A stretch of DNA of 64,000 nt from Ruminococcaceae bacterium UBA1730 (lineage in GTDB: Bacteria > Bacillota > Clostridia > Oscillospirales > Acutalibacteraceae), in NCBI GenBank assembly GCA_002315935.1, contig DCII01000017.1:10999-74998 (forward strand), written 5' to 3'. Both the position numbers and the translations under genes were made by a program. Of this stretch, positions 12,081 to 50,869 are shown in pieces; within the stretch, counting starts at the first letter, position 1, and every line of letters begins with the position of its first letter. The notes under the pieces were generated by a model. That model was not told the origin of the DNA and searched no databases. It saw only the letters and a list, made by a program, of their open reading frames with translations.

Positions 12081-13097
12081 TCAGGCAAAGCATTCAGCAA
12101 TTTTGGCAGTTCCTTTGATTATAAACTTATCGGCGGCACTGAACGGAACAAAGAAATAATCGCCTTTTTTGATTTCTCTTTCATAGCCGTCTCCGACTAT
12201 TTTTGCTTCTCCGTCAAGAACAACATAAATCGCAACACCCTTGGAAAGTCTGAATTCGCCGTTATTGAGAGTTATAGTTCTTACATTGAAGCTCTCGGTA
12301 ATGTTTTTGCCGATAATTGATTCATAAATAAATCCTTCCGCTTTTTCGATAACCTCAGGTTTAAGCGGAGCGGGATACCTCTTGCCTATATCAAAGCATT
12401 CAAGAGCATTTTTTCTTGAAAGCCCGATATACATTTCGTTATCGGAAAGCCTGTAATTTCCGCAAAATCTTTCGGGCTGAATTGTGAAATCAGTCGGTTC
12501 CTGAACCTCAAGAAGAAGGCAACCATATCCGATTGCATGAACCATCTTTGCCGGAATATAAATTACATCGCCGACCTTGACATCAATTGAGCTGAGAAGC
12601 TCCTCCATTGCATTTGAGCCATTGTCGCTTTCGTCAATTGCTTTTTCAAAATCTTCAAGAGTTACTCCGTCTTTAAAGCCATAATAAATCTTTGCTCCGG
12701 GACGAGTTGCAAGAATAATCCAGCTTTCTTCCTTTCCGTATTTCGAATTGAAATATTTTGCTGAAAAGGCTTTATCCGGATGAGCCTGAACGGGAAGACG
12801 GATTGCAGAATCGAGAATCTTTGTCAGAATTCCGATGTCCTGCCGGTCACCGAGCATTTCCTTCTTATATTCATTTATGGCATTATTCAGATAAATATCC
12901 GTTCCTTCGATTTTTGAAATTCCTTCATATTCATCAGTGCTTCCCTCGTTGAGAGCATGAACTGTTGAAACAACCCATTCCTCGGGGAAGAATCCATCCT
13001 CGGAATCATCGCCGAAAAATTCGGAAAAAAGCTTTCCACCGGTATAAACTCTTGCAACACGGTTTTTTTCAAAAAATATCGGTCTGTCATAAAACAT
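12081..13097 (-). CDS. Class I mannose-6-phosphate isomerase-like cupin
   Basis: LTKILDSAIRLPVQAHPD, KEESW, VHAIG, LEVQEP metal-ligand motifs. Confidence 0.8.
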   Translation of the reverse strand: MFYDRPIFFEKNRVARVYTGGKLFSEFFGDDSEDGFFPEEWVVSTVHALNEGSTDEYEGISKIEGTDIYLNNAINEYKKEMLGDRQDIGILTKILDSAIRLPVQAHPDKAFSAKYFNSKYGKEESWIILATRPGAKIYYGFKDGVTLEDFEKAIDESDNGSNAMEELLSSIDVKVGDVIYIPAKMVHAIGYGCLLLEVQEPTDFTIQPERFCGNYRLSDNEMYIGLSRKNALECFDIGKRYPAPLKPEVIEKAEGFIYESIIGKNITESFNVRTITLNNGEFRLSKGVAIYVVLDGEAKIVGDGYEREIKKGDYFFVPFSAADKFIIKGTAKIAECFA

Positions 13098-13099
13098 TT

Positions 13100-14392
13100 T
13101 TAGTCACCTCTGTATTTTATAATCGAACAGGCTTCGTCAATGGAACCGAATTCGCCTACAGCAACCGCAGCGGAAAGAGCTGCACCGAATGCGGCTTCCT
13201 CCTCGTAGCAGGGAAGCTTGATTTCAGCCTTGAACATATTTTCAACTATTCTGCAAAGAACGGGATTTTTTCTTATTCCGTTGCCTGAGCAGACAACTGC
13301 ATTCTTCGTGACGCCGGAAGCTTTATAAAATCCGAAAAGCTCATCGGCAATGCCTTCGAGAGTTGCAAATGCAAATTCCGCAACATTGAAATTATTTTCG
13401 GTTATTCCGAAATATCCGCCTTTAACAGCAGGGTCTTTTCTTGTTCCGCAAAATCTGCAATCAGCCTTTATTTCCGATTCGGATTTATTTTCAAGAATCT
13501 TATCGAGAACGGGATAGAAATTATCAATATCAGCTCCCGAAAGAGAAGCGATTTCTTTACAGAATTTTTCAAACATTGCGAAGGCTCTTCCGCCGCAGAG
13601 CGAACAGCCTGCACAAAGAAATCTCTTACCGTCAAACGGTCTTAATTCAACTCCCTCAATCTCGGCAAAATCATCAATCAGAAATGAAATCTGCGAACCG
13701 GTTCCGACATTGACAAGAGCATAGTCGGCACATCTGACTGAGCCGATAAAGCTTGCCTGATTATCGCCGAGAGCAACGGCAACGGGAACGCCTCTGTATT
13801 CGCCTGCAACCTTAAACTCTGTTGTAACTTCGGGAAGACGAGCATTATCAATTCTGAATTTATTGTTCTTAACATCAAAAGCTCCGAGACTTGCGGCGTT
13901 TGTTATATGAACAACGGGAGTATCAAGCTCGCAAAGACGCATAACAATCCAATCGGCAATTGTGCAGAGAAATGCTGCATCCTCGGGAATAAGTCCGTTT
14001 GCTTCGTTATACAGGTCGGTGGCAAGTCCGTAACCCGGAAAACATCCGAGATATTCAGCAAAGGTTTTTCCGTCTTTGTATTCCTTTGCACCTCTCTGGT
14101 CCTGCCAGATATAAAGCGGACTCAACGCCTTGCCTGTTTCATTTGTATACAGAATTCCGTGCATCTGACCGGAAAATCCTATTGCAGAAACATCTTCATC
14201 AAAAAGCTCATCAATTATGCCGAAAACAATATCGAATATTGAATCGGCATCCTGAATTCTTTCAAATTCATTATCGGAGGAAATGAAGGAAGCGTTTTTT
14301 CGGGTTAAGCTTCTGAGCATTTCTCCGCTTTCGGTATCGGTTATAACTCCGCATATGCCGGTAGTTCCGATGTCTATTCCTAAAATTTTCAA
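13100..14392 (-). CDS. FGGY-family carbohydrate kinase, sedoheptulokinase-like
   Basis: LGIDIGTT, GFSGQMHG, YIWQDQRG, TNAASLG, LGDNQAS, NVGTGSQIS, CGGRAF, SGNGIRKN. Confidence 0.85.
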   Translation of the reverse strand: MKILGIDIGTTGICGVITDTESGEMLRSLTRKNASFISSDNEFERIQDADSIFDIVFGIIDELFDEDVSAIGFSGQMHGILYTNETGKALSPLYIWQDQRGAKEYKDGKTFAEYLGCFPGYGLATDLYNEANGLIPEDAAFLCTIADWIVMRLCELDTPVVHITNAASLGAFDVKNNKFRIDNARLPEVTTEFKVAGEYRGVPVAVALGDNQASFIGSVRCADYALVNVGTGSQISFLIDDFAEIEGVELRPFDGKRFLCAGCSLCGGRAFAMFEKFCKEIASLSGADIDNFYPVLDKILENKSESEIKADCRFCGTRKDPAVKGGYFGITENNFNVAEFAFATLEGIADELFGFYKASGVTKNAVVCSGNGIRKNPVLCRIVENMFKAEIKLPCYEEEAAFGAALSAAVAVGEFGSIDEACSIIKYRGD

Positions 14393-14404
14393 TTCATTAC
14401 CTCT

Positions 14405-16729
14405 TTAGCAGAATGTTGTTGAAGCCGGGTCAAGTCTTGTGATTATATCCTGCTGAATTGCAGGAGAAAGGTCAAGGAAATTAACGAATGTGCCGTGAAT
14501 TCTCATAATGTAAACTCCGCTCGGAGCATATTTCTTTGGATTTGCAAGAACCTTTCGAAGAATTTCTGCTGTTGTGACATTGACATAAAGATAGAAGGGA
14601 GAAACGCCTTCCTTGAGCGGATTGAAGAAGAGAGGAGCAATAACCTTATCCCTGAATTCAACGCCCTTTTCCTCATAGGATTCACCTCTGAAATATTTCG
14701 GGTCAATGCCGAGATGCGAAGCATAACCGCCGTTGAACTTTTCAAACGGCATTTTCATATTCGAAAGCATACGGAATCCGAGACCGTTTTCTGCACTTCC
14801 GTAAAGCGGGTCAACACCGTAGCCGAGCATATCTCTTGATTTTCTGCCGTCGGGAGTTGCACCGACCCAGTAGCCGTAGAGAAGATGGGTTGAGGGCGAG
14901 CTGAAATCGGGTCTGAAGGGATTTCCGAGATAATTCTTTTGCGAAGCAACTATATCGGAAACCTTTGAAGCAATTTCCCCTGCTTCATTATCAACCTTTT
15001 CGATATTGTTGCCGAACTTATCGGCAGAAAGAAGGAATGCACGAAGGTCCTCATAGCCTTTGAAATCAGCCTTGAGAGCATCAACAAGCTTATCTGCATC
15101 CTCAGGTCTTTCGGAAAGAAGCTTATCAATTGCGGAGAATGAATCTGCAATAACCGAAACGCCGTGGATAAGACAACCGCTTCCGTTATATTTTGTTCCC
15201 TGCTTATGAATATCTCTTGCATCAATGCCGTTCTCAAGGCATCCCATTATGCAGGAAAGGAAGGGAACTCTCTGGGTTGAAAGAGCTTCGGAAGCACCGT
15301 TTGCACATTTGCACATTGCTTCAACAAACTTTTCAACATTCTTATAGAATACTTCTCTGATATTTTCAAGACTTGCCTTTTCACACTCAACAAGCTTTTC
15401 GCCTGTGATAGTGGAAACACCGCCCGTTAAAGTCATTTCAAGAATCTTGGGAAGATTCAGCCAACTATTGGTTGTGTTGCCTGTATCCTTGCCCATAATA
15501 AGAGGCTCCTGACATCCTGCAATTGAAATATCGGCAAGGTCTTCCTTGTCAACTCCCTTTGAACCGAGAACCTCGAAAAGAGAATCATCATTGAAGAATG
15601 AGGGAGTAAGCACTCCGGGGCTGAAAAGAAATCTGCCCATTTCCTCATATAACTTTGCAGGGGTATTCTTATGAAGCTTAACGGAAAGAATAGGCTGAGG
15701 AAGATTCATGTCATAATAGGCATCCATGAGAGCATAGGTTGAAGGATTGGTTAAATCGTTGCCGTCAGCATCTCTGCCGCTGATTATGATATTCTGCGAA
15801 ATTGCCCAGCTTCTGTCCGCAACATTGAAATAAACAAGAAAATGCTTGAAATATGCGGCTTCGGTTTCTCTGTCCATTCCGTTTCTGTACGGTTCAAAAA
15901 TTCTGTCAGCATTGCCGACTGAAAAAGCAAAGGGATTCGGAGTCTGTTCAAGGCACATAACCTGCCAGAGAAGCTGGAATGCCTGAATAGCTTCCTCAAG
16001 ATTTTCGCATCCGTTTTCGGGAACCTTACGGAGATTCTTAACCATCTGCTCAAGCTGAAGCTTTCTTTCTGCCGAAGCTGTTTTCATCTGTTCTTCGGCA
16101 ATATCGGCATATCTGTTTGCAAGAATAATTACGCTGTCGAGAACAATTCTGAATGCTTCGAAGCCCTTGCCTTCCTTTCCTTCGATTTTTGAAATCATAT
16201 TTTTAACGCCGTATTTGATTGCATATCTCATATCGGGAATGAGATGACCCGTTACCTGCTCGAAGAAGAAAATAACCTCTTTTGTGTAGCATTCGGCAGG
16301 ACCGTATACCTTGCCGAGCTTTGTTGCATATTCGGATTTGCCGAATTCCGCTCTCGCACTGTCAATTCTTTCCTGCGTGAATTCTTCGTTTGCATCAATG
16401 TCGCCGAAAACAGCCGTTGGGTCGCAATAACCGCTGAATTCTTCAACCTTGAAGGTGGGATTTATAAGTGCATAGCTTCTTGCAAAGCCGTCATCCTGCG
16501 TACCTGCAAAAAGCTGATAATCGCTGATTGAAAGAGGAATTGTTCTGATTATTTCTCTCAAAATGAGAGCTTTTTTAACCTCTTCATTTTCGTTTGCGTA
16601 TGTTTTTTCAAGCTCAAGCTCTTTTTCTTTCGCAATGAACCATCCGTCAAGCCTGTTGCCTGCTCTCTTTTCTTTGAAAAGTGCCTTTGCCATTTCGGTA
16701 ATCTTCGATGCGTTAAGTAACTTATCCAT
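14405..16729 (-). CDS. Glycyl radical enzyme (PFL superfamily) of unknown reaction
   Basis: 774 aa; Cys loop SIAGCQEP (Cys codon 15512-15514); C-terminal Gly loop MRIHGTF (Gly codon 14492-14494); VGATPDGR, FGNN and QQDIITR motifs; adjacent activase. Confidence 0.88.
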   Translation of the reverse strand: MDKLLNASKITEMAKALFKEKRAGNRLDGWFIAKEKELELEKTYANENEEVKKALILREIIRTIPLSISDYQLFAGTQDDGFARSYALINPTFKVEEFSGYCDPTAVFGDIDANEEFTQERIDSARAEFGKSEYATKLGKVYGPAECYTKEVIFFFEQVTGHLIPDMRYAIKYGVKNMISKIEGKEGKGFEAFRIVLDSVIILANRYADIAEEQMKTASAERKLQLEQMVKNLRKVPENGCENLEEAIQAFQLLWQVMCLEQTPNPFAFSVGNADRIFEPYRNGMDRETEAAYFKHFLVYFNVADRSWAISQNIIISGRDADGNDLTNPSTYALMDAYYDMNLPQPILSVKLHKNTPAKLYEEMGRFLFSPGVLTPSFFNDDSLFEVLGSKGVDKEDLADISIAGCQEPLIMGKDTGNTTNSWLNLPKILEMTLTGGVSTITGEKLVECEKASLENIREVFYKNVEKFVEAMCKCANGASEALSTQRVPFLSCIMGCLENGIDARDIHKQGTKYNGSGCLIHGVSVIADSFSAIDKLLSERPEDADKLVDALKADFKGYEDLRAFLLSADKFGNNIEKVDNEAGEIASKVSDIVASQKNYLGNPFRPDFSSPSTHLLYGYWVGATPDGRKSRDMLGYGVDPLYGSAENGLGFRMLSNMKMPFEKFNGGYASHLGIDPKYFRGESYEEKGVEFRDKVIAPLFFNPLKEGVSPFYLYVNVTTAEILRKVLANPKKYAPSGVYIMRIHGTFVNFLDLSPAIQQDIITRLDPASTTFC

Positions 16730-16741
16730 TTCGTTCTCTCC

Positions 16742-17446
16742 TTATGAAGTAACGGTTTTAAAGCCGTAATTTCTGAATACTTCGGTAAACTCTCTGATTT
16801 TTTCAGGCGAAACAAACCCGTTTTCAATCTGATATTTACCCTTCCATTTATCTTTTCCGAATTCATGATAAGCAAGAAATTCAAAATCAGCGTTTGAACA
16901 ATCAAACCTTGAAAAAAACTCCGCAAATCCTTGAGGATTATCGTTAATTCCGTTGATAACGGGAATTCTGATATGAATTTCTCTGCCCGAATTCAGAAAA
17001 TATGCAATGTTCTTCTTTGTAATTTCGTTTGGGGAGCCGGTCCATTTTATGTGAATTTCTCCATCATAATGCTTCAAATCAATAATCAGAAAATCAACAT
17101 ATTGTGAAATCTCGGGAAGCTTTTCGGATGAACCGTTTGTTTCAATGCAGGTGTTTATTGAATTTTCTTTAAGCTTCTTCAGAAGAATAATAAGCTCGTT
17201 CGACTGTAGGGTACATTCGCCGCCGGTAAAGGTCACTCCCCCTCCGTCAAAAAACATCATCCTGCTTCGCATTATCTCATTAAACAGTTCATCAACCGAA
17301 TATTCCTTTGCTTTTGAATTCTGCTTTGGAATAGAATCTGCATTTGAACACCATTTGCAGGCAAAATTACAGCCCTGAAGATGATAAACAAGCCTGTTGC
17401 CGGGACCATCCTGCGAATAATTGAAGCCTTTCTGAAGAATCAACAA
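16742..17446 (-). CDS. Glycyl-radical enzyme activating enzyme (radical SAM)
   Basis: DGPG motif, GCNFACKWC (CxxxCxxC), GVTFTGGE, IETNG; no ferredoxin insert; TTG start. Confidence 0.92.
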   Translation of the reverse strand: MLILQKGFNYSQDGPGNRLVYHLQGCNFACKWCSNADSIPKQNSKAKEYSVDELFNEIMRSRMMFFDGGGVTFTGGECTLQSNELIILLKKLKENSINTCIETNGSSEKLPEISQYVDFLIIDLKHYDGEIHIKWTGSPNEITKKNIAYFLNSGREIHIRIPVINGINDNPQGFAEFFSRFDCSNADFEFLAYHEFGKDKWKGKYQIENGFVSPEKIREFTEVFRNYGFKTVTS

Positions 17447-17521: not shown

Positions 17522-17550
17522 TTGACAAGAAATTTTTAATACAATATAAT
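17522..17550 (+). promoter_or_regulatory. Perfect consensus sigma-A promoter of birA, back-to-back with the GRE operon promoter
   Basis: TTGACA (17522-17527), 17 nt, TATAAT (17545-17550). Confidence 0.8.
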
Positions 17551-17557
17551 ATCCTCG

Positions 17558-18259
17558 GTGATAAAATTGTATTTTAACGAATACCATTTCAATTCAATCA
17601 GCTCAACAAGCGATTACGCTTCCGAAAATACCGATAAAATTAAAACTCCGGCAATTATTTCGGCGGATGAACAAACACAAGGCAGAGGCAGAAAAGGGCG
17701 AAGCTTCTATTCCCCTGCTCATAGTGGTTTATATTTCACAATTCTGATTAAAACGGAAAATCCTCCCGATAACATTACACCTGCGGCAGCCGTTGCAGTT
17801 TGCAGAGCAATTGAAAATCTTTCGGATTTAAAGCCGAAAATCAAGTGGGTCAACGATGTTTTTCTGAATAACAAAAAAGTCTGCGGCATTCTCTGCGAAG
17901 CTTATATCAGAAATAACGAAGGATATGTTTCAATCGGAATAGGAATAAACCTTACCACAAAGGATTTTCCGGAAAATCTTTCGCAGGCAGGAAGCATCGG
18001 AAGCATTGATAAGAATAGCCTTATTGCTGAAATATCAGACTTTATCGGCTCTTATTTCGAATATCCATGCAAATTTGATATTGTTTCGGAATACAACAAA
18101 CGCTTATTCATCAAAGGAATGAACATAACATATACGCTTGACAACGAAGAAAATCAGGCAACAGTAATCGGAATAAATGAAAACTGCAATCTTTTGGTCA
18201 GAAATTCTGACGGAAAAGAAATAATTTTATCTTCGGGTGAAATATCAATTCATATATAA
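17558..18259 (+). CDS. birA: Biotin--[acetyl-CoA-carboxylase] ligase, group I (no HTH)
   Basis: STSDY, EQTQGRGRKGRSFYSP, IKWVNDV, KKVCGIL, GIGINL, SGEI; 233 aa with no N-terminal DNA-binding domain. Confidence 0.93.
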   Translation: MIKLYFNEYHFNSISSTSDYASENTDKIKTPAIISADEQTQGRGRKGRSFYSPAHSGLYFTILIKTENPPDNITPAAAVAVCRAIENLSDLKPKIKWVNDVFLNNKKVCGILCEAYIRNNEGYVSIGIGINLTTKDFPENLSQAGSIGSIDKNSLIAEISDFIGSYFEYPCKFDIVSEYNKRLFIKGMNITYTLDNEENQATVIGINENCNLLVRNSDGKEIILSSGEISIHI

Positions 18260-18275: not shown

Positions 18276-20387
18276 ATGAAAAGAAACAGCTGTTACAAAC
18301 TCGGAAAGGCTCCGCAGAGATTTTGCGAATTCATTTCAACGGCAAACGGTCTTATTTCCGACAAAGCATTATGCCTCGGAGCAGGAGCAGACGGAACAGT
18401 CTATATCGGAACTGACTGCGGTCTGAATTACACAAAAGCAGACGGAAGCTTCGGAAGCTTTCCCTGCGGAGAAATAAGCAATATTTTTGCTTCAAAAGAC
18501 GGTAAGGTTTATTTCACAAGTGCAAATATTCTTTATTGCGTTGAAAACGGAAAAATTGCAGAGCTTCAGCAGTTTGAAGAAGAAATAACAGGTATCAGCG
18601 GCGAAGAGAGAACATTCCTTGTTACTGCTTCAACTATTTATGAGCTTGTTGACGGCAAATTCGAAGAATTCTTCGGAACTGAAATGCCCGCTCAGGGTCT
18701 TACCTGTGCCTGTGGAAGAATAGTTTCGTATTCAGGCAGATGCCTTATGATTTTTGCAGGAAAAAGAAAGAACTGGAGATGCCTTTTCCCCGAGCATACC
18801 CCGATGCCCGAATTTAAAATAAACTGCGTTTCGTTTGATAAAAAGTTAGGTTTCCTCTGGATGGGAACCGATAAGGGTGCTTATATTTACGATAACCATT
18901 GCAACTGGTACGGTCATAAAGAAATAAACGCTCTTCCCGAGGAAGAGATATTCAGCATTAATTTTGCAGATGACGGAAGAGTAATTCTCGGCTCCGATGC
19001 AGGTCTTATCATCATGAACAAGGGCAAGGCTAAATATCTGCCTGCAACAAGATGGGTCTGCGAGGAAAAGGTTAATGATGCAATCACTGTCGGAGACACA
19101 ATCTGGACTGCAACCGATTCAGGCGTTTCAAAGATAACCGAAAAAGAAATGTCTCTCAGGGAAAAAGCAGATTACTGCTATGAGCTGACCGAAAAGCTCT
19201 ATCTTCGCAGAGACGGTTTTCTCTGCTATCTTGAAGATGTTAAAAACTGCGATATAACCACAGGTGTACCCGGAATCAGCGACAATGACGGACTCTGGAC
19301 TCACACCTACCTCGGTGCACTCTGCTATTGCTATGCAGTTACAAAGGATGAAAAAATTCTCGAAAGTGCAAGAAGATGTATGTACGCAATGGCAAAGCTC
19401 ACAAAGGTTACGGGCATAAAAGGCTTTACCGCAAGAGCCGTCAGATATGAGGGAGACAAGAATTACGGCAAAAAGCTTGATATGCAGATTGACGGCGGAG
19501 AATGGCATAAAGCTCCGGACGGCTCCTGCGAATGGCTCGGCGAAACCTCAAGCGATGAAATGACAGGTCACTTCTTCGGATTTTCTCTTTATTATGATTT
19601 CTGTGCCGATGAAAAGGAAAAGGAATTCATCAGAGAAATTATCTGCGACATTGTTGACCACATTCTTGAAAACAAATACAGGCTTCATGACATTGACGGT
19701 CTTCCGACAACATGGGCTTGCTGGGACCCCGATGAGCTTAACAGAAACTGTATGTGGCAATGGGAAAAATGCATAAATTCCCTTGAAATTCTTACATTCC
19801 TAAAGGTTGCATACCACATGAGCGGAAACGAAAAATATCAGAAAGAGTATCTCCATCTCGGTCTTGATGAGCATTATTTTCTCAATATCGCTCAGCATAA
19901 AAAAGAAGACGGTCATGTTACTCACATTGACGATAATCTCGGATTTCTCTGCGAGCAGACATTGCTTCGTCTTGAAGATGATGATGCAACGAGGACCTAC
20001 ATTCTCATGGGTCTTCGCCATCATTGGAATTATGAGAGAATCGAAAGAAACGCAATGTTCAATTTTGTTTACGGAGCATTCACCGATGATGTTTGTGATA
20101 TTGATGCTTCCGTTGAACAGCTCCGCAACACTCCTCTTGATTTTGTAAGAAGACCTATCTATAACAGAAACAGAAAGAATCTTGTTTTCGACACGCAGAT
20201 AGAGCAGTGGGGCGGAGAGCTTCAGCTTGTTGCACCGCTCGATATTGACGAAAGGTCAATCGGAAACAGCGATTCGAATTTCTTCCATGCAGACAGCGGA
20301 AAATCGCATAAAGCTGAGTGTCCGAGTCTTTATCTTCTCCCCTATTGGCTTGGAAGATACTTCGGACTTATCGGCGAAGAAGAATAA
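18276..20387 (+). CDS. Uncharacterised protein: N-terminal beta-propeller-like repeats plus C-terminal helical (six-hairpin-like) domain; paralog of 48656-50869
   Basis: Repeated LWMGTDKG/IWTATDSG/VYIGTDCG two-component-regulator-propeller-type motifs; helical C-half with SDNDGLWT, WLGETSSDEMTGH, HIDDN; no signal peptide. Confidence 0.7.
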   Translation: MKRNSCYKLGKAPQRFCEFISTANGLISDKALCLGAGADGTVYIGTDCGLNYTKADGSFGSFPCGEISNIFASKDGKVYFTSANILYCVENGKIAELQQFEEEITGISGEERTFLVTASTIYELVDGKFEEFFGTEMPAQGLTCACGRIVSYSGRCLMIFAGKRKNWRCLFPEHTPMPEFKINCVSFDKKLGFLWMGTDKGAYIYDNHCNWYGHKEINALPEEEIFSINFADDGRVILGSDAGLIIMNKGKAKYLPATRWVCEEKVNDAITVGDTIWTATDSGVSKITEKEMSLREKADYCYELTEKLYLRRDGFLCYLEDVKNCDITTGVPGISDNDGLWTHTYLGALCYCYAVTKDEKILESARRCMYAMAKLTKVTGIKGFTARAVRYEGDKNYGKKLDMQIDGGEWHKAPDGSCEWLGETSSDEMTGHFFGFSLYYDFCADEKEKEFIREIICDIVDHILENKYRLHDIDGLPTTWACWDPDELNRNCMWQWEKCINSLEILTFLKVAYHMSGNEKYQKEYLHLGLDEHYFLNIAQHKKEDGHVTHIDDNLGFLCEQTLLRLEDDDATRTYILMGLRHHWNYERIERNAMFNFVYGAFTDDVCDIDASVEQLRNTPLDFVRRPIYNRNRKNLVFDTQIEQWGGELQLVAPLDIDERSIGNSDSNFFHADSGKSHKAECPSLYLLPYWLGRYFGLIGEEE

Positions 20388-20391
20388 AATT

Positions 20392-20424
20392 ACGGGTAAA
20401 GGCTTGGTTCCTTTACCCGTTTTC
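20392..20424. terminator. Bidirectional terminator between convergent genes
   Basis: 11-bp perfect stem acgggtaaagg/cctttacccgt flanked by A and T tracts. Confidence 0.75.
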
Positions 20425-41952: not shown

Positions 41953-44625
41953 TTGAAAAACGAAATTTATCATGTAATCTCTAACACACATTGGGACAGA
42001 GAATGGTATCAATCTCACGAAAAATATCTTGTCCGCCTTGTTGAGCTTATGGACAGACTTCTCGACATTATGGAAGAACACAGGGATTATCGTTTTGTTA
42101 CCGACGGTCAGTATGCACTTGTGGAGGATTATATTGCGTCAAAGCCCGAAAACTACGGCAGAATAAAAGCTCTTGTTTCGGACGGAAGACTGCTTATCGG
42201 TCCGTGGTACACACAGCCGCTTGAAAATATTGTCGGCGGAGAAGCACTTATCCGCAATCTTCAGAAGGGAATCAAGGAATCCGAAAAGCTCGGAAATGCA
42301 ATGAGATTTTCTTATGAAATTGATGAATTCGGCCACACCTCACAGCTTCCTCAAATTCTTGCCGGCTTCGGAATAAACGGAGTTATGGCGTGGAGAGGTG
42401 TTCCGAAAAATTGCAGAAGCCTTTTCAGATGGCATGGTGCTGACGGAACAACGGCAAACTTTTTTAATTCAAACGAGGGCTACGGAGAAGCAACCTCCCT
42501 GCCTGATTCAACCGAAGATTTTGATGAAGTAATTGACGGGATAAATCATCACCGAGAAGGTCTTAAAACTCATGTTGAGAGAATAAGAGAGCTTCGCATG
42601 AAGGTTTCTGACAGCAAAAATATGGTATGGCTCAACGGCATTGACCATTCATGGGCACAGGCTGATGTTCTTGAAATATGCAGAAGAATTGAAGAATTAT
42701 TCCCAGAGCTTGAGGTTAAGCAAAGCACTCCGGAGGAATATGCAAACGCTGTTATTGATGACCTCAATGAAAGAAATATCGTTCCTCCCGAACACAGTGG
42801 AGAGCTTCTCTACACATATGAGCCTGTTCTTGAGTCAACAAATGCACTTCATCCGAGACAGAAGAGAAGACATTTTGAAACAGAAAAAATGCTTGTCGGT
42901 AAATCGGAGCCGTTAACCGAATTCGCTTCTCTTCTTGGCTTCAAATATCCCGAATGGGCAATCGAAAGAGAATGGAAATATGTTCTTGAAAATCATGCTC
43001 ATGATTCTCTCGGATGCTGTTCGGTTGATGAAGTTTTCGAACAGGTTATGGCAAGATACGGTGCATCACTTTCAATCGGCGAACAGATTTGCGAGGATTC
43101 ATTAAGAAAGATTATGAGCTGTTCTGTTGAAGAGCCTTCAATCTGGATTTTCAATCTGAGCGAGAAAAATATTCAAGGCTCTGTTAAAGTGTCATTTGAT
43201 GTTCCCGTTGGCTTTGGCGGAGAAAAATTCACGCTCTCCGATTCAGAGGGAAATGAAACAAGAATGTGCATTATATCATCGCAGAAAAACGGCGATGTCA
43301 GATATAATCCGAGGCTCGGCCATCCGACATGGGGCGAGGTTGTTCACTACGAAGCAATAATTGATGCTCCTGCTGTTCCTGCATTCGGTGCAACAAGATT
43401 AAAAATAAACAAAGCCGAAAATGCAGATTTGCCGACAAACAGACAGCATTATTATTTCGCTGATGCACAGGGAATTCTCGAAAACAAAAATTTCAGAATT
43501 ACATTCAATAATAACGGTTCATTCAATCTCTATGATAAGAGAACCGACACGGAATATAAAAATCAGTTGCTCTTTACCGATGACGGTGAAGCTGCTCATT
43601 GCTATATCCATGTTGAGCCGCAGAATGACATGAGAAGATTCTCCTCGGCAGGCTGCAGTGCAGATATAAATATCCTTTATGATAATGCTCTCGGCGGTGC
43701 ATTTGAAGTTAAGCTCACAATGCTTATTCCGAAAGGCATTGAGAAAGACAGAAAATCAAGAACCTCTGAAACGGAAAAGCTTGAAATTTCTTATGTTATT
43801 GCTCTTGAAGAAAATTCTGAAGCAATCAACATTGACATAAAAATCAACAATAAGAGCAGAAATCACAGATTAAGAGCTATATTTCCGACAAACATTGACT
43901 CGGAAATAAGCTTTTCCGACCAGGCATTTGACGAGGTTGAAAGAGCTATAAAGGTTGAAGAAGAAAAAAATCTTTTTGAAATGCCGTATATGACCCATCC
44001 CATGCTTTCATACTGCGGAATCAAAGACGGCAAAAAGGGTCTTTCCGTTGCCACAAGAGGAATTTATGAATATGAATGCACAGATGATGCTTCACATTCT
44101 CTTGCAATAACGCTCCTTCGTTCAATTGAAGTTATTGACAATGACACCTTCGAAACAACGCCGTCTTACTTCATGGAGGAAGCACAGAATATCTGCGAAA
44201 TAAACCATTCCATTTCTCTTATTCCGTTTACTGATTCCGAAGCTCTTCACAAAGAGGTTTCTGCGTTTATCAGAAAGCCCCTTGCACTTGCAAACAGAAC
44301 ACCTGAAGAAAGTGTTATGCCGGACTATAAAAAGCATAATTCGGTTATTTCTGATTCATTCAGAGCAATTGAGCTTTCCGGAAGAAATCTGACTGTTACG
44401 ACTTTTAAAAAGGCTTCAAAGAATGATAATCTTATAATCAGAATTCTCAACAGAGGAAATGATAATTCAACCGGAAGGCTGAAGCTGAATATTCCCGGTG
44501 TTGAATTCAGCCAAATATATATGACCGATTTTGAAGAAAACAGAATTGAAAAAATCGGAAGCGGAAATGAAATTGAATTTAAACTCTCCTCTAAAAAGCT
44601 GATAACGCTTGAATTTACATTATGA
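41953..44625 (+). CDS. GH38 alpha-mannosidase-like glycoside hydrolase
   Basis: SNTHWDREWY, TDGQ, IGPWY, IDEFGH (nucleophile), GIDH, NHAHDSLGCCS; TTG start; no signal peptide. Confidence 0.9.
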   Translation: MKNEIYHVISNTHWDREWYQSHEKYLVRLVELMDRLLDIMEEHRDYRFVTDGQYALVEDYIASKPENYGRIKALVSDGRLLIGPWYTQPLENIVGGEALIRNLQKGIKESEKLGNAMRFSYEIDEFGHTSQLPQILAGFGINGVMAWRGVPKNCRSLFRWHGADGTTANFFNSNEGYGEATSLPDSTEDFDEVIDGINHHREGLKTHVERIRELRMKVSDSKNMVWLNGIDHSWAQADVLEICRRIEELFPELEVKQSTPEEYANAVIDDLNERNIVPPEHSGELLYTYEPVLESTNALHPRQKRRHFETEKMLVGKSEPLTEFASLLGFKYPEWAIEREWKYVLENHAHDSLGCCSVDEVFEQVMARYGASLSIGEQICEDSLRKIMSCSVEEPSIWIFNLSEKNIQGSVKVSFDVPVGFGGEKFTLSDSEGNETRMCIISSQKNGDVRYNPRLGHPTWGEVVHYEAIIDAPAVPAFGATRLKINKAENADLPTNRQHYYFADAQGILENKNFRITFNNNGSFNLYDKRTDTEYKNQLLFTDDGEAAHCYIHVEPQNDMRRFSSAGCSADINILYDNALGGAFEVKLTMLIPKGIEKDRKSRTSETEKLEISYVIALEENSEAINIDIKINNKSRNHRLRAIFPTNIDSEISFSDQAFDEVERAIKVEEEKNLFEMPYMTHPMLSYCGIKDGKKGLSVATRGIYEYECTDDASHSLAITLLRSIEVIDNDTFETTPSYFMEEAQNICEINHSISLIPFTDSEALHKEVSAFIRKPLALANRTPEESVMPDYKKHNSVISDSFRAIELSGRNLTVTTFKKASKNDNLIIRILNRGNDNSTGRLKLNIPGVEFSQIYMTDFEENRIEKIGSGNEIEFKLSSKKLITLEFTL

Positions 44626-45417: not shown

Positions 45418-47409
45418 TTATTCTGCAATTCCAACCGTTTCGCCGGCGGAAGTCTGAACGGAAATTTTCTTTCCAGTAAACGGATTAATGTATGTCAGGT
45501 TGCTTCCCTTTTCGGAATATACCGTAATTTTACCTATTTTACCGTTTTTAATTGAAGAAGACACAAGGAAAGCACCTTCCGCTCGAAGATTATTATATTC
45601 ACAGTCTATTGATTTATCCCAAACAGGGAAAAATCTGAGAACTCCGTGATTGCTCTGCAACGCCATTTCATTGATTACATTCGGAATAAGCGAGCAATTT
45701 TCGAGGCATCCGCCGAACCGTTTGAAAAGCATATTCGGAAGAAGAAATTTATCAATGTTAAGCTTAAGCTTTTCTATTATGAATTCGGCAGGAAAGCCAA
45801 CTCTTATTGCGGCAGGAAAAAGCGAATTTGTTCCGTTATCGTCTTCCCATCTGTAGGTTGAATTGATTGAATTTTTTGCAATTTCAATCATTTTCTTATC
45901 GGAATTCAGGTCAACACAGCCGCACGGATAGATATGCTGAAGACCGACTGTATTATCGGGATGCCACCTCTGACCCTTTTCCGTATATCTGAAAACTCTT
46001 TTGAATTTTCTTACACAGGTCGGGAACGGAGCAAGGTCATCAAGAAGCTTCTGCCATTCCTTCTGTTTATCCTCGTCAATTTCAAGAGCCTTCGCCATGT
46101 CAATTGCCGATTCCAATCCCAAACGCAAAAGACCGAGAGTGACAACATTATTTTTATCATTTATAACCTTACGATATTTGAAATCAGAATAATCATTTCT
46201 GTACATCGGCACTTCATGAGCTGAATCCTTTTCGACATTGAATATTCCATTTTCATAGTATCCGAAATCCTCATAGAATTCAAGACACTTTTTCAGATAT
46301 GAATAAGCATGATTACGGGCATATTCAATATCTCTTGTTGATTTCCATCTGAAAATCATTATATCCGCAGGATGGAGTGCATTGCTTTTCTGCCCGAGAA
46401 AAAGACGAAGAAAAGGATTATATGCCTTTGACTGATATTCCGAAATAAAACCGAGTGGCTGAATTCCGACAGGAAAAATTATTCCTCGGCATCCGAAAAC
46501 CTTTGCATATTTCTCCCCTGTTTCAACAAATTCTTCAAGCGGAGTATGGTAACAATCAGTCAGCTCAACATGATTTGAACTGCAAGCCGAATAGAAAGGT
46601 GCCTGATAGTTATAATTAAGGTGATAATCGCTTTTCCAGTTAGGTCTTTCTATGGTGATAAAATTACCGAATAAGCCCGGAGCAAAACGCTTATTGCCGG
46701 TGCAGACTGCAAGAAGATAGAGCGACTGATACCATCCGTTTTCAAGAGCTTCCTCGGAAAGCTTAACCGAGGACTTTGACCAGAATTTCCGCCACTCCTT
46801 CGAATGAAGCTTTTGGAGTTTATCAATATCCGCCGATTTTATTCTTTCAACCGCATCCTCAAGCGGATTTTCAGTATCATGATTTGTTGAAACGGTTATA
46901 AGATATTTTTCCTCCGAAGCTTTTTTGAATGCCGCATATGCTTCTGTTTTGGGGAATTTTTCTTTTTTGCCCAATTTGCGGAAGATATATTCAACAGAAT
47001 TATGAGTTGACCTTCCCGCTTCTCCGTCATAATCGCCTTCAACGCATTTCAGAACGGGATTTATTCCGTTACCTTCGATAAGAATTGTATTTTCGGATTT
47101 GAAAACGACAATTCTGAATTCCGTTTCTTTAAATCTGCATCTGATGCAGGCTTCATCGGCATCCTGCTCAACATAGTAATCATCATAGCAGGGAATATCT
47201 ATATCAATGCTTCCGAGCGGTCTTATTCCTCCGACTGAGTGCATTTCATCAATCATCCATAAATCGCATTTGGCTATATAAATTCTCATTCCGTTTTCGG
47301 AATTTCCGAGAATGACCGCCAAATCTCCGTTGCCTGCAATTGCACCATCGGGAATGCTGTTTTTTCCGCTTAATTCGGGTTTTTGAGTTATAATCGCAAT
47401 ATGCTTCAT
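45418..47409 (-). CDS. Divergent GH95-like glycoside hydrolase
   Basis: GAIAGNGDL N-terminus, YQSLYLLA, PGLFG...WKSDYHLNYNYQAPF (cf. GH95 GLQG...WxSKYTxNINxEMNYW), LQHIYP, GLRAxGAF-like NLRAEGAF. Confidence 0.7.
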   Translation of the reverse strand: MKHIAIITQKPELSGKNSIPDGAIAGNGDLAVILGNSENGMRIYIAKCDLWMIDEMHSVGGIRPLGSIDIDIPCYDDYYVEQDADEACIRCRFKETEFRIVVFKSENTILIEGNGINPVLKCVEGDYDGEAGRSTHNSVEYIFRKLGKKEKFPKTEAYAAFKKASEEKYLITVSTNHDTENPLEDAVERIKSADIDKLQKLHSKEWRKFWSKSSVKLSEEALENGWYQSLYLLAVCTGNKRFAPGLFGNFITIERPNWKSDYHLNYNYQAPFYSACSSNHVELTDCYHTPLEEFVETGEKYAKVFGCRGIIFPVGIQPLGFISEYQSKAYNPFLRLFLGQKSNALHPADIMIFRWKSTRDIEYARNHAYSYLKKCLEFYEDFGYYENGIFNVEKDSAHEVPMYRNDYSDFKYRKVINDKNNVVTLGLLRLGLESAIDMAKALEIDEDKQKEWQKLLDDLAPFPTCVRKFKRVFRYTEKGQRWHPDNTVGLQHIYPCGCVDLNSDKKMIEIAKNSINSTYRWEDDNGTNSLFPAAIRVGFPAEFIIEKLKLNIDKFLLPNMLFKRFGGCLENCSLIPNVINEMALQSNHGVLRFFPVWDKSIDCEYNNLRAEGAFLVSSSIKNGKIGKITVYSEKGSNLTYINPFTGKKISVQTSAGETVGIAE

Positions 47410-47526: not shown

Positions 47527-48645
47527 ATGTCTGAATACGATATAGCGGCAATAATCTGGCCCTCTTACACGGGTGATGAAATAAGAAGCAGAATTTTCTG
47601 GCCGGAGGGATACGGCGAATGGGAATCAGTTAAAAGAATGACAAACAAAGGCTATGAGGGTTGCAGATGGCCGAGAAAACCTTTGTGGGGTTATGTCAAC
47701 GAAGCAGACCCCGATGTTATGGAGATGCAGATAAATGCGGCAATCCGTCACGGTGTAAATACATTTATATATGACTGGTATTGGTTTGACAACAGACCCT
47801 TCCTCGAAAACTGCCTTAATGACGGTTTTCTCAAAGCACCTAACAACACTAAAATGAAATTCTATCTTATGTGGGCAAACCATGATGCAACTCACCTTTG
47901 GGATATAAGAAATTCACATCTTGATAATGTTATCTGGAAGGGTTCCGTAACAGAAAAGATTTTTGATGAAATCTGCGACAGAACAATCGAAAAATATTTC
48001 AGCAAAAAAAATTATTATTGCATTGACGGATGCCCTGTTTACATGATTTTTGACCTTCAGAATTTTGTCGAAAGCTTTAATTCAGTTGAAAAATGCAGAG
48101 AAGGAGTCAAGCGTTTCAGAGAAAAAACAATCAAAGCAGGCTTCAAGGGTCTTAATTTCCAGCTTGCATATTTCAGCGACTATAAATCAAGATTTAAAAA
48201 AGAAGGTTCTGATGAATATTATTCCATGAAGGAGCTGATGGAAGCGGTTGGATTTGACAGCTTCACAAACTATAACTGGGCGTGCGTCAACATAAATGTT
48301 GACACAGATTACGAAGAAGTAACCGATTCATACATGAAAAGATGTGAAGAATTCAGCAAATTTTCATCGGATTTCTACCCCAACATAACCATAGGATGGG
48401 ATAACAACATCCGTTTCAAGGAATTCATTAAGGGAGTTATGAAGAATAACACTCCCGAAAACTTTGAAAAAGCCTGCATAAAAATCAAGGAATATACAGA
48501 TAAAGCTCTGCAAGACGGCAAAATGAAGGCTCCTCTCATAACGATAAACAGCTGGAACGAATGGACTGAAACAAGCTATCTTGAGCCTGATGATTTATAC
48601 GGCTACGGCTATCTTGACGCAATAAAAAGAGTATTCGGCGAATAA
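47527..48645 (+). CDS. GH99-like (WbsX-type) glycoside hydrolase domain protein
   Basis: PLWGY, FIYDWYW, LMWANHD, IGWDNN, INSWNEWTETSYLEPD; no signal peptide. Confidence 0.8.
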   Translation: MSEYDIAAIIWPSYTGDEIRSRIFWPEGYGEWESVKRMTNKGYEGCRWPRKPLWGYVNEADPDVMEMQINAAIRHGVNTFIYDWYWFDNRPFLENCLNDGFLKAPNNTKMKFYLMWANHDATHLWDIRNSHLDNVIWKGSVTEKIFDEICDRTIEKYFSKKNYYCIDGCPVYMIFDLQNFVESFNSVEKCREGVKRFREKTIKAGFKGLNFQLAYFSDYKSRFKKEGSDEYYSMKELMEAVGFDSFTNYNWACVNINVDTDYEEVTDSYMKRCEEFSKFSSDFYPNITIGWDNNIRFKEFIKGVMKNNTPENFEKACIKIKEYTDKALQDGKMKAPLITINSWNEWTETSYLEPDDLYGYGYLDAIKRVFGE

Positions 48646-48655
48646 GGAGTAAAAT

Positions 48656-50869
48656 ATGTCAGCAAGAAAAATCACTTATAAAATCGGAAGCTTTGAGCAG
48701 AAAACGAGAAAGGTTTTCACAACGGCAGACGGTCTGAAATCAGACAATATCACTTCAATGTGCTTCAGCAAGGACGGAACCTTGTTTGTTGCAACAGATA
48801 AGGGACTTTCTTATCTCAAGGACGGAAAATTCAATGAATTTGAAACAGGAATAAAAAATGCTTCCGTATCGTTCGTTTCCTTCTGCGAAAAAACTCTCTA
48901 CGCAGGAGTCGGCGACAGGTTAATTGCATTCAACGGCAAAAAGAAGATTCTCAACGAGAAATTTTCATCCCCGGTTGTTGATGTTAAAATTGACGGAGAC
49001 GGAAACACATTTATTCTTACTAAAACGGTTTTTTATAAAAAAAATGCAGGTGAAGAAGCTTACAGCATTAAAATGGGTGTTCCCGGTTGCGGAAGCTGCA
49101 TGACAATTTTCAGAAACAACCGTGTTTATATCGGAACGAAAAACAACGGAATTCACGCTCTTGTAGGCAAGCGTTGGCATTGGTCAAGCCTTGATGCGGA
49201 TTCAACAAATCTTCTTTCAGACAATATCAACTGCCTTTATTCCGACCCCGCCGGTAACCTGTGGATAGGAACAGACAAGGGTGTCTGCGTTTATGACGAC
49301 AACAGCTACTGGCTTGACCACGGCAAGATTGAAAACCTTCCCGATGCGGAAATAACCGGCATTGCGGTTGCCGATAACGGAGATAAATATTTTTCAACCG
49401 GCACTGGTCTTATCCATATGCACAACGGCAATCTTTCATATTACGGATATAAGAGATGGCTGCCGAGCCCGAACGCTACCGGCGTTGCAGTTTCGAATGA
49501 CGGCACAATCTGCGTTTCAACCGACAAAGGTCTGAGCCTTATTGAAACAAAAATGATGACCCTCGAAGAAAAAGCAAAATACCTTCGTGAAATAACTGAA
49601 ACATATAATGTCAGAAAAGACGGCTATGTTCTTGACAGAGAGCTTGACAATGAGGGAGTTGTTTCTCTTGACGAGGGATTTATTCCGAACACCGACAATG
49701 ACGGACACAGAACGGGCAACTATCTCGCCGACCTCGCTCTTGAATACGGCTGCACAAAGGATAAGGAAGCAAAGAAAAGAGCAAGAAGAAGTCTTCTTGC
49801 GATGATAAAGCTGACTGAAATCACGGGAATTGACGGCTTTGTTGCAAGAGCGGTCAGATACCCTGATGAAAGAGAATACGGCACGGGAGTTCGCCACGAA
49901 TGGCACTTCACCAAGGATGAAAACGGAAACGACATTGAATGGCTCGGCGAAACCTCCTCTGATGAAATAGTCGGTCATTTCTTCGGCTATGCTTATTATT
50001 ATGACCTTGTTGCCGATGAAAAGGATAAGGAGCTTATCAGAAAAACCGTTTCAAAGATTCTTGACCATATTCTTGACCACAATTTCAGACTTGTTGACAC
50101 AGATGGAATTCCCACAACCTGGGCAAACTGGAATCCCGAGCTTCTCAATAACGATAATAAATGGGCGGAGGAAAAGGGAACTAATTCGCTTCAGATGCTC
50201 ACCTATCTTACCTGCGGCTATCATATGACGAAGAACGAAAGATACAAAGAAGCTTATGATATGCTCGCAACGGATAAGCATTTTGTTATGAACCTGATGA
50301 AATACAGAATTCCCGACGGACACCTTTGCCACATTGACGATAATCATGATTTTCTTATGATTTCTCTTCTGATGAAATATACGGATGACCCTGCTCTGAA
50401 ATCAATCTACGCAATGGGACTTACCAACCATTGGAATGATGCCAAGGCAGAAAAGAATTCAATGTATAACTTCATCTACGGTGCAATGACGGGAGAATTC
50501 TTCAACGCAGATGACTGCATTGACGAGCTGACCGATTACCCGATGGATTTAGTCTGCTGGTCACTTTATAACAGCCACAGAACGGACCTTGAATGGAACA
50601 TGACGCCGTGTGAAATGGGAATGGAGCCTCAGCTTGAAACGCCGCTTTCAGCTCACGAAAGAAGAATTGTCACAAATGACCTCAACAGATTCATCTGCGA
50701 CAGCGGAGCAGAGGATGTTGCAAAGCCGATATTCCGAAAGAGCGATGACCCGACTGCTTTTAACGTTCTTCCGCCGACAGGAAACGACAAGGGAATGCTT
50801 CTTCGTACCTGCAACAATTTCACTCTCCCCTATTGGTACGGCAGATATTACGGATTAATTGAAGATTAA
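48656..50869 (+). CDS. Uncharacterised propeller plus helical-barrel protein; paralog of 18276-20387
   Basis: LFVATDKG/LWIGTDKG/VSTDKG repeats; TDNDGHRT, WLGETSSDEIVGH, HIDDN; 10 bp downstream of the GH99-like gene. Confidence 0.7.
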   Translation: MSARKITYKIGSFEQKTRKVFTTADGLKSDNITSMCFSKDGTLFVATDKGLSYLKDGKFNEFETGIKNASVSFVSFCEKTLYAGVGDRLIAFNGKKKILNEKFSSPVVDVKIDGDGNTFILTKTVFYKKNAGEEAYSIKMGVPGCGSCMTIFRNNRVYIGTKNNGIHALVGKRWHWSSLDADSTNLLSDNINCLYSDPAGNLWIGTDKGVCVYDDNSYWLDHGKIENLPDAEITGIAVADNGDKYFSTGTGLIHMHNGNLSYYGYKRWLPSPNATGVAVSNDGTICVSTDKGLSLIETKMMTLEEKAKYLREITETYNVRKDGYVLDRELDNEGVVSLDEGFIPNTDNDGHRTGNYLADLALEYGCTKDKEAKKRARRSLLAMIKLTEITGIDGFVARAVRYPDEREYGTGVRHEWHFTKDENGNDIEWLGETSSDEIVGHFFGYAYYYDLVADEKDKELIRKTVSKILDHILDHNFRLVDTDGIPTTWANWNPELLNNDNKWAEEKGTNSLQMLTYLTCGYHMTKNERYKEAYDMLATDKHFVMNLMKYRIPDGHLCHIDDNHDFLMISLLMKYTDDPALKSIYAMGLTNHWNDAKAEKNSMYNFIYGAMTGEFFNADDCIDELTDYPMDLVCWSLYNSHRTDLEWNMTPCEMGMEPQLETPLSAHERRIVTNDLNRFICDSGAEDVAKPIFRKSDDPTAFNVLPPTGNDKGMLLRTCNNFTLPYWYGRYYGLIED

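Follow-up and report, generated by a model that had tools for sequence, protein, structure and literature searches.

Results

Two paralogous propeller–barrel proteins

The window analysed here, that is the whole 64,000-nucleotide stretch of contig DCII01000017.1 (positions 10,999 to 74,998) from Ruminococcaceae bacterium UBA1730 (Acutalibacteraceae), carries two paralogous genes, which we call copy 1 and copy 2. Both are predicted to encode proteins in which a beta-propeller is fused to a helical barrel and which may represent a new family of carbohydrate-active enzymes (CAZymes). A first-pass annotation, made from the sequence without database searches, had described the two open reading frames (ORFs) as collinear over their full length and as sharing a set of invariant acidic motifs. 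We found both ORFs exactly as claimed, the proteins could be aligned end to end (BLASTP, 37% identity, 53% positives, E 1e-153), and each quoted motif was found in copy 1 and copy 2 alike, in collinear order. The features of the pair are listed below, with motif residues given for copy 1 / copy 2.

18276..20387, + strand: copy 1, 703 amino acids (aa), predicted cytoplasmic propeller plus (alpha/alpha)6 barrel protein
48656..50869, + strand: copy 2, 737 aa, paralog of copy 1
18276..19151, + strand: N-terminal 7-bladed Reg_prop beta-propeller of copy 1, residues 1-292 (Pfam, AlphaFold2 (AF2) secondary structure, Foldseek)
19149..19202, + strand: linker helix M-S/T-L-x-E-K-A joining propeller and barrel (helix 294-309 in the AF2 model)
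19203..20384, + strand: (alpha/alpha)6 six-hairpin barrel, putative catalytic domain, residues 310-703 (AF2, Foldseek, hhalign)
19281..19292, + strand: DNDG, residues 336-339 / 347-350, N-terminus of barrel helix 1
19431..19448, + strand: ARAVRY, residues 386-391 / 397-402
19533..19580, + strand: WLGETSSDExxGHFFG, residues 420-435 / 429-444, N-terminus of barrel helix 3
19695..19724, + strand: DGxPTTWAxW beta-hairpin loop, residues 474-483 / 483-492
19764..19784, + strand: EKxxNSL, residues 497-503 / 506-512, N-terminus of barrel helix 5
19923..19937, + strand: HIDDN, residues 550-554 / 559-563, N-terminus of barrel helix 7
20340..20372, + strand: C-terminal PYWxGRYxGLI, residues 689-699 / 725-735, last barrel helix

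Neither copy 1 nor copy 2 has a signal peptide, a membrane segment or a hydrophobic N-terminal stretch, and the maximum Kyte–Doolittle mean over 19 residues is 1.13 and 1.24, respectively, which supports the intracellular location proposed at first pass and the prediction that both are cytoplasmic proteins. Copy 1 contains 28 cysteines (4%) and copy 2 contains 15, none of which is conserved family-wide.

The propeller of the first-pass annotation was found in the N-terminal domain by Pfam, AF2 secondary structure and Foldseek alike. Reg_prop (PF07494) scored 21.0 bits in copy 1 and 44.5 bits in copy 2 (cut-off 20.4), in both cases within the N-terminal 290 residues only, and the C-terminal 415 aa matched no Pfam or NCBIfam model above threshold; nothing at all passed the threshold in the NCBIfam scan. 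A full-length AF2 model built on a 60-sequence alignment (predicted local distance difference test (pLDDT) 92.4, predicted template modelling score (pTM) 0.91) shows 28 beta-strands in residues 7-292, fitting seven four-stranded blades, followed after the linker helix by a domain that is helical throughout apart from short beta-hairpin excursions. Only propellers came up when the full-length model was searched with Foldseek, the sensors of Bacteroides hybrid two-component systems (HTCS) ranking first (4a2m, E 2.8e-11), and phmmer against the PDB matched the propeller to 3v9f at 2.8e-15. As these propeller matches swamped the list, residues 289-703 were folded and searched alone. The resulting barrel model (pLDDT 91.8, pTM 0.93) consists of 11-12 paired helices, and its 50 best Foldseek matches in the PDB are almost all (alpha/alpha)6 six-hairpin proteins, including cellobiose 2-epimerases (7d5g, E 4e-5; 3vw5, 5zig and 5zhb), AGE, mannose isomerase, GH146/GH127, GH9, GH88 and GH76 (GH, glycoside hydrolase). 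The helical barrel of the first-pass annotation is thus borne out by the model, which at the fold level places this domain in the six-hairpin (alpha/alpha)6 glycosidase-like superfamily. Foldseek found no close relative of the barrel among the solved structures of the PDB.

Family size and conserved residues

Word-index homologue searches yielded 871 and 1,205 relatives for the two proteins. An exhaustive profile search with both barrel domains gave 1,780 clusters at 50% identity (E <= 1e-3), 425 of them at E <= 1e-30, and by this count the family comprises at least 1,780 such clusters. A typical member has about 700 aa, the last 400 of which make up the barrel. Public annotations read solely ‘hypothetical protein’ or ‘two-component regulator propeller domain-containing protein’, and a full-text literature search found no published description of the propeller plus barrel architecture. 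Two unusual proteins were seen among the relatives. In P0304 (3,111 aa), 11 separate stretches match positions ~130-253 of the barrel profile, the segment from TSSDE to helix 6, so that part of the barrel would be repeated in an unusual way. In P0354 (1,012 aa; locus L148, 2862-5900) a BNR_2 sialidase-like domain is fused before the Reg_prop propeller and barrel.

Conservation was computed over 138 representatives of the 50%-identity clusters and is given in copy 1 numbering. D336, N337, D338 and G339 of DNDG are 98-99% conserved, followed by T342 (94%), G383 (99%), R387 (96%), and W410 and W420 (96% each). In the TSSDE loop S425 and E428 reach 100% and D427 99%, with G431 and H432 at 96%; H432 is the only near-invariant histidine, H550 being conserved just locally. 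The DGxPTTWAxW loop contributes D474 (88%), G475 (98%), T478 (100%) and W480 (88%), and N501 of EKxxNSL stands at 88%. D552 of HIDDN is present in 87% of the family and invariant in both local clades. Towards the C-terminus R633 (99%), D635 (95%), E659 (93%), Y690 (99%) and W691 (91%) are conserved, as is K297 in the linker helix (96% family-wide). At such levels of conservation the motifs shared by copy 1 and copy 2 are not due to chance.

According to the AF2 secondary structure, DNDG, TSSDE, EKxxNSL and HIDDN each sit at the N-terminus of barrel helix 1, 3, 5 and 7, respectively, and the groups R387/W410/W420 and D472/D474/T478/W480 lie in the long loops entering those helices. In six-hairpin enzymes the face formed by the N-termini of the inner helices is the sugar pocket, where binding and cleavage take place. 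The conserved residues of the modelled barrel therefore very probably line one pocket.

The two local clades differ in this set. In the copy 1 clade (27 sequences) the core set is kept, position 635 is relaxed to N, D, G or K (N in copy 1 itself) and position 659 to E, A, S or Q, suggesting that a subsite has changed; the copy 2 clade mostly retains D635 and E659. The first-pass annotation had taken DNDGLWT versus DNDGHRT as a sign of different specificity. This proved to be a weak marker, since the copy 2 clade is itself variable there (H in 11/33 and R in 8/33 sequences), and the relaxed positions 635 and 659 appear to mark divergent specificity better.

Relationship to known six-hairpin families

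Pfam, NCBIfam, PDB sequence and profile searches assigned the barrel to no characterized family. Neither protein gave a barrel match by phmmer against the PDB sequences, and hmmsearch with a profile of 18 diverse barrels found nothing there even at E 10. Six-hairpin families appeared at most sub-threshold in a Pfam scan of 18 members, and a scan of 60 members likewise gave only sub-threshold matches, to C5-epim_C (14/60), GH127_cat (10/60), GH76 (1/60) and GH88 (1/60). PF07944 (GH127) scored 15.6 bits in copy 2 against a cut-off of 24.9 and did not match copy 1.

For a more sensitive comparison, the 138-sequence family profile was aligned by hhalign with members of GH127, GH76, AGE and GH125 gathered from genomes; no C5-epim_C members for such a comparison were found in 101 genomes. 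The GH127 catalytic domain aligned at 91.5% (E 8.5e-7) over 148 columns, corresponding to barrel helices 1-6, compared with 1.0% for GH76, 0.5% for AGE and 0.2% for GH125. In the GH127 alignment H432 pairs with the conserved histidine of the GH127 ‘GH’ motif, and the TSSDE loop is an insertion. The GH127 invariants E330, E346-x-C348 and C414-C415 (numbering of locus L121) had no conserved partner in the relaxed hhalign alignment, and no invariant cysteine exists among the 138 representatives. In GH127 the Glu, Glu-x-Cys and Cys-Cys invariants are the acid/base, the zinc site and the nucleophile. Because these catalytic residues lack a counterpart and no cysteine is conserved, the barrel appears to be a remote evolutionary relative of DUF1680/GH127 and not a member. 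The expectation of the first-pass annotation that no family would be hit needs qualifying in view of the remote homology to GH127, which comes without the GH127 catalytic residues.

Membership in the known families was rejected in each case. GH127/GH146 (DUF1680) was excluded by the sub-threshold Pfam score and by the missing Cys nucleophile, Glu/Cys3 zinc site and acid/base Glu; the AGE and cellobiose 2-epimerase group by the hhalign value and the absence of any Pfam GlcNAc_2-epim (PF07221) match; GH76 by its hhalign value and a weak Pfam match in a single member of the 60; and GH125 by its hhalign value and the absence of a Pfam match (PF06824).

Pairing and co-occurrence with GH38

A functional link comes from a subfamily of shorter members. 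A third paralog in the same genome, located on another contig (G000:C6; L003, 598-2403), is a 601-aa ORF (592 aa as called in the database) that retains only about two propeller blades and has a GH38 alpha-mannosidase gene directly downstream (from 2419). In this 592-aa subfamily the propeller is reduced, and some members lack it, with the barrel motifs being retained. A co-directional gene with a GH38 domain follows immediately downstream in 16 of 19 loci, sampled across genera of the bacterial family to which the window belongs, 13 of these partners being full-length (~830 aa) and three a 343-aa N-domain form. All three independent metagenome contigs (3/3) showed this pairing with a 592-aa member, in one case with flanking GH2, GH20 and DUF4838 genes. 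At some loci (L097, 5006-6034; L107, 3943-4992; L036, 120-1172) the gene after the 592-aa member encodes a protein of 343-351 aa that matches the GH38 N-terminal domain only and could be truncated or stand-alone.

The family is present in 26 of 201 Acutalibacteraceae genomes with one to six copies each, and an even sample of 400 genomes from across the phylum contained no member. Such a patchy distribution with expansion of paralogs is typical of catabolic CAZymes. Co-occurrence with GH families was compared between the 26 family-positive and the 175 family-negative genomes using Fisher tests, which ignore phylogeny:

GH38: 26/26 (100%) of positive and 68/175 (39%) of negative genomes, p 3e-10
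GH130: 17/26 (65%) of positive and 44/175 (25%) of negative genomes, p 1e-4
GH125: 8/26 (31%) of positive and 13/175 (7%) of negative genomes, p 0.002
GH43 (control): 16/26 (62%) of positive and 71/175 (41%) of negative genomes, p 0.056

With phylogeny ignored, the pattern is specific for mannoside-related families. In Firmicutes GH125 is a classic GH38 partner. Substitution of the family for GH125 or GH130 was considered and rejected, as both co-occur positively with it. Genomic context and co-occurrence together tie the family to carbohydrate catabolism, in line with the carbohydrate-active role suspected at first pass.

Other gene neighbourhoods

Neighbours of the 700-aa subfamily vary and include GH2 plus Metallophos, GDPD, a glgBCDA-His_Phos operon, NamZ, an MFS sugar transporter, and PfkB plus ribulose-phosphate epimerase. 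GH2 lies directly upstream of a family member in one Acutalibacteraceae subgroup, and a distant 1,103-aa member on a Planctomycete-like contig also directly follows a GH2 gene. At L113 (5116-11658; G410:C16) three tandem 700-aa copies stand between GH109-like/GH4 genes and a DHDPS/NanA-like gene, which suggests a cluster for host-glycan utilization. A gene encoding a PMI-like cupin recurs beside family members in an arrangement different from that at copy 1 (L036/L037/L042/L051/L107).

In the window, the following genes lie near copy 2:

41953..44625, + strand: GH38 alpha-mannosidase gene (Pfam Glyco_hydro_38N/mid/C), 4 kb upstream of copy 2
45418-47409, - strand: divergent GH95-like enzyme, 662 aa (weak GH95 catalytic-domain match, 2.1e-18; distant PDB relative 2rdy, BH0842)
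47527..48645, + strand: WbsX-like (PF14307) gene, Pfam 1.5e-44, no signal peptide, directly upstream of copy 2

The ribosome-binding site of copy 2, AAGGAG, overlaps the stop codon of the WbsX-like gene, so the two genes form an operon and are translationally coupled. No sequence related to the WbsX-like protein was found in the PDB. As homologues of neither the WbsX-like nor the GH95-like protein were found in about 100 other loci, both were ruled out as conserved partners.

The surroundings of copy 1 are as follows:

12081-17446, - strand: operon of glycyl-radical enzyme, activase, FGGY kinase and PMI-like cupin, divergent from birA-copy 1
17522..17550, + strand: consensus sigma-70-type promoter TTGACA-17-TATAAT preceding the birA-like gene (12/12 match, pattern match only)
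17558..18259, + strand: biotin-protein ligase (BirA-like) gene (Pfam BPL_LplA_LipB + BPL_C); copy 1 starts 16 bp downstream
20392..20420, either strand: bidirectional intrinsic-terminator-like hairpin (stem of 11 bp), immediately behind the stop codon of copy 1 (pattern match only)

The promoter at 17522..17550 likely drives birA and copy 1 as a bicistron. The arrangement of glycyl-radical operon, birA and copy 1 is conserved in 14-16 loci of the copy 1 clade.

Discussion

With moderate confidence we propose that the family consists of soluble cytoplasmic enzymes, probably glycoside hydrolases, which act in mannoside or N-glycan catabolism together with GH38. In such an enzyme the propeller would pack against the (alpha/alpha)6 barrel, in which the Cys-Zn centre of GH127/GH146 has been lost or never existed and which carries a near-invariant residue set of its own, namely D336-N-D338-G, R387, W410, W420, S425-x-D427-E428, H432, D472/D474, T478, W480, R633 and Y690-W691. 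An imported oligosaccharide may be bound in the barrel pocket with the propeller serving as an extra binding wall or lid, and acid/base catalysis would then cut the glycosidic bond. The best candidates for the residues involved are D427/E428 and D336/D338, the SSDE pair D427/E428 being the first choice for the catalytic acid pair. At the level of the family the pathway would be the degradation of mannosides or N-glycans beside the GH38 alpha-mannosidase. This pathway is proposed for the family and not for copy 1 in particular, whose neighbours are uninformative and whose clade is altered at two conserved positions. More tentatively, and with rather less than even confidence, we suggest a new CAZy family of hydrolases or phosphorylases, in which a DNDG plus S-x-D-E centre on a DUF1680-like barrel without Cys/Zn, different from every characterized centre, and a Reg_prop propeller recruited to the substrate site would serve an unassigned cytoplasmic mannoside or N-glycan step beside GH38 in gut Clostridia.

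Several points weigh against this proposal. The pocket is located from helix topology only, and the structural similarity of the barrel to its Foldseek matches is weak (template modelling (TM) score 0.44-0.51, root-mean-square deviation 8-10 A, identity 9-14%), the top matches moreover being epimerases rather than hydrolases. No CAZymes are found among the neighbours of copy 1 (birA, amidase, trxB and the divergent glycyl-radical sugar operon), a GH38-like gene lies within 8 kb in only 10/80 loci of the 700-aa subfamily, and the co-occurrence statistics do not account for phylogeny. Finally, the two near-invariant arginines, the T-S-S loop and the recurrent phosphoesterase neighbours of the family (Metallophos, GDPD and His_Phos_1) would fit an enzyme handling phosphate or a carboxylate.

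This last point leads to the question of chemistry, for which hydrolysis is most likely and phosphorolysis a less likely but serious rival. GH65 and GH94 are (alpha/alpha)6 phosphorylases in which phosphate attacks the anomeric carbon, and a cytoplasmic glycoside phosphorylase of this kind might use D427 or E428 as general acid, with the attacking phosphate being held by R387/R633, T424-S425-S426 and H432. The cytoplasmic location would suit such an enzyme, Arg387, Arg633, the T-S-S loop and His432 are all near-invariant, genes for phosphate-ester enzymes recur nearby (Metallophos, GDPD, His_Phos_1 after the glg operon, and PHO4), and the family co-occurs with GH130 mannoside phosphorylases without a sign of exclusion. 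However, these phosphoesterase neighbours are not kept across subfamilies, GH65, GH94 and other phosphorylase families are absent from the top Foldseek and Pfam matches, and the conserved carboxylates number at least four, where a phosphorylase would need fewer. We therefore consider phosphorolysis unlikely as the reaction of the family.

If the barrel does not cleave a bond at all, it could be a six-hairpin epimerase, isomerase or lyase converting what GH38 releases, either mannose or a mannosyl-disaccharide. The top Foldseek matches, namely cellobiose 2-epimerases, AGE and D-mannose isomerase (E 4e-5 to 7e-3), speak for this, as does C5-epim_C as the commonest weak Pfam match, and genes for a PMI-like cupin and for PfkB kinase/ribulose-phosphate epimerase recur beside family members. 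All C5-epim_C matches are nevertheless below the Pfam cut-off, and the hhalign comparison with AGE was as poor as stated above. AGE and cellobiose 2-epimerase chemistry uses two catalytic histidines, and here H432 alone is near-invariant; the many conserved tryptophans and the added propeller also suggest a site of oligosaccharide size, so that this role seems quite improbable to us. Even more remote is a non-catalytic glycan-binding or sensing protein, whose propeller and degenerate barrel would bind a glycan and control or accompany a partner, for instance GH38. Ligand sensing in Bacteroides HTCS is the best-known role of Reg_prop propellers, and the pairing of the 592-aa subfamily with GH38 might also reflect that one protein is a subunit or chaperone of the other, yet Pfam and NCBIfam found no output, DNA-binding or kinase domain, the barrel motifs persist where the propeller is reduced or lost, and the conservation of paired acids at nearly 100% over at least 1,780 clusters, typical of catalysis, makes such a role unlikely.

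Should the prediction be correct, a function could be assigned to at least 1,780 clusters that now carry the label ‘hypothetical’. The prediction would also define a new family of glycoside hydrolases or phosphorylases with a distinct catalytic motif, and the Reg_prop propeller would have its first enzymatic use. Judging from the tight pairing with GH38, a step is missing from the present picture of how gut Clostridia (Acutalibacteraceae and their relatives) handle mannose-containing glycans after import, with yeast mannan and host or dietary N-glycans as candidate sources. This would bear on gut glycan metabolism as well as on enzyme discovery for glycan analysis. Even if the proteins were inactive, the conserved pairing with GH38 would still want explaining.

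Comparison with known systems

The GH127/GH146 beta-L-arabinofuranosidases (HypBA1; 4qjy, 5opj and 8qf8) have the (alpha/alpha)6 catalytic barrel in common with copy 1 and copy 2 and are the only family tested that showed profile–profile homology, with Foldseek E values of 4e-3 to 4e-2. They possess middle and C-terminal beta-sandwich domains, whereas copy 1 ends with the barrel, has no such Pfam domains and carries the N-terminal propeller instead. The best structural matches belong to the AGE superfamily (7d5g, 3vw5, 5zig, 1fp3 and 5x32; E 4e-5 to 7e-3, TM score 0.44-0.51), whose members are likewise cytoplasmic, have a barrel of similar size and act on mannose-configured sugars. In contrast, AGE enzymes have no propeller, and the conserved set described here is mostly Asp/Glu and not the paired His of AGE. 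The GH76 alpha-1,6-mannanases and GH125 exo-alpha-1,6-mannosidases are six-hairpin barrels acting on alpha-mannosides. GH76 (Foldseek E 1e-2 to 1e-1) uses two adjacent catalytic carboxylates, to which the adjacent pairs D427-E428 and D552-D553 of our family might be equivalent in position.

The N-terminal domain resembles the periplasmic sensors of the Bacteroides HTCS (BT4663 and BT3049; 4a2l/4a2m and 3v9f), which contain the same type of 7-bladed Reg_prop propeller. Pfam, NCBIfam and hydropathy revealed none of the Y_Y_Y, transmembrane, kinase, receiver or AraC domains of HTCS in copy 1 or copy 2, and in place of the tandem propellers of the periplasmic sensors our family has a single propeller that is predicted to be cytoplasmic and is fused to a barrel. 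To our knowledge, the Reg_prop propeller is known only from sensors. Both fold classes are thus known already, and the fusion of propeller and barrel together with its putative catalytic motif is a candidate for a combination that has not been described before.

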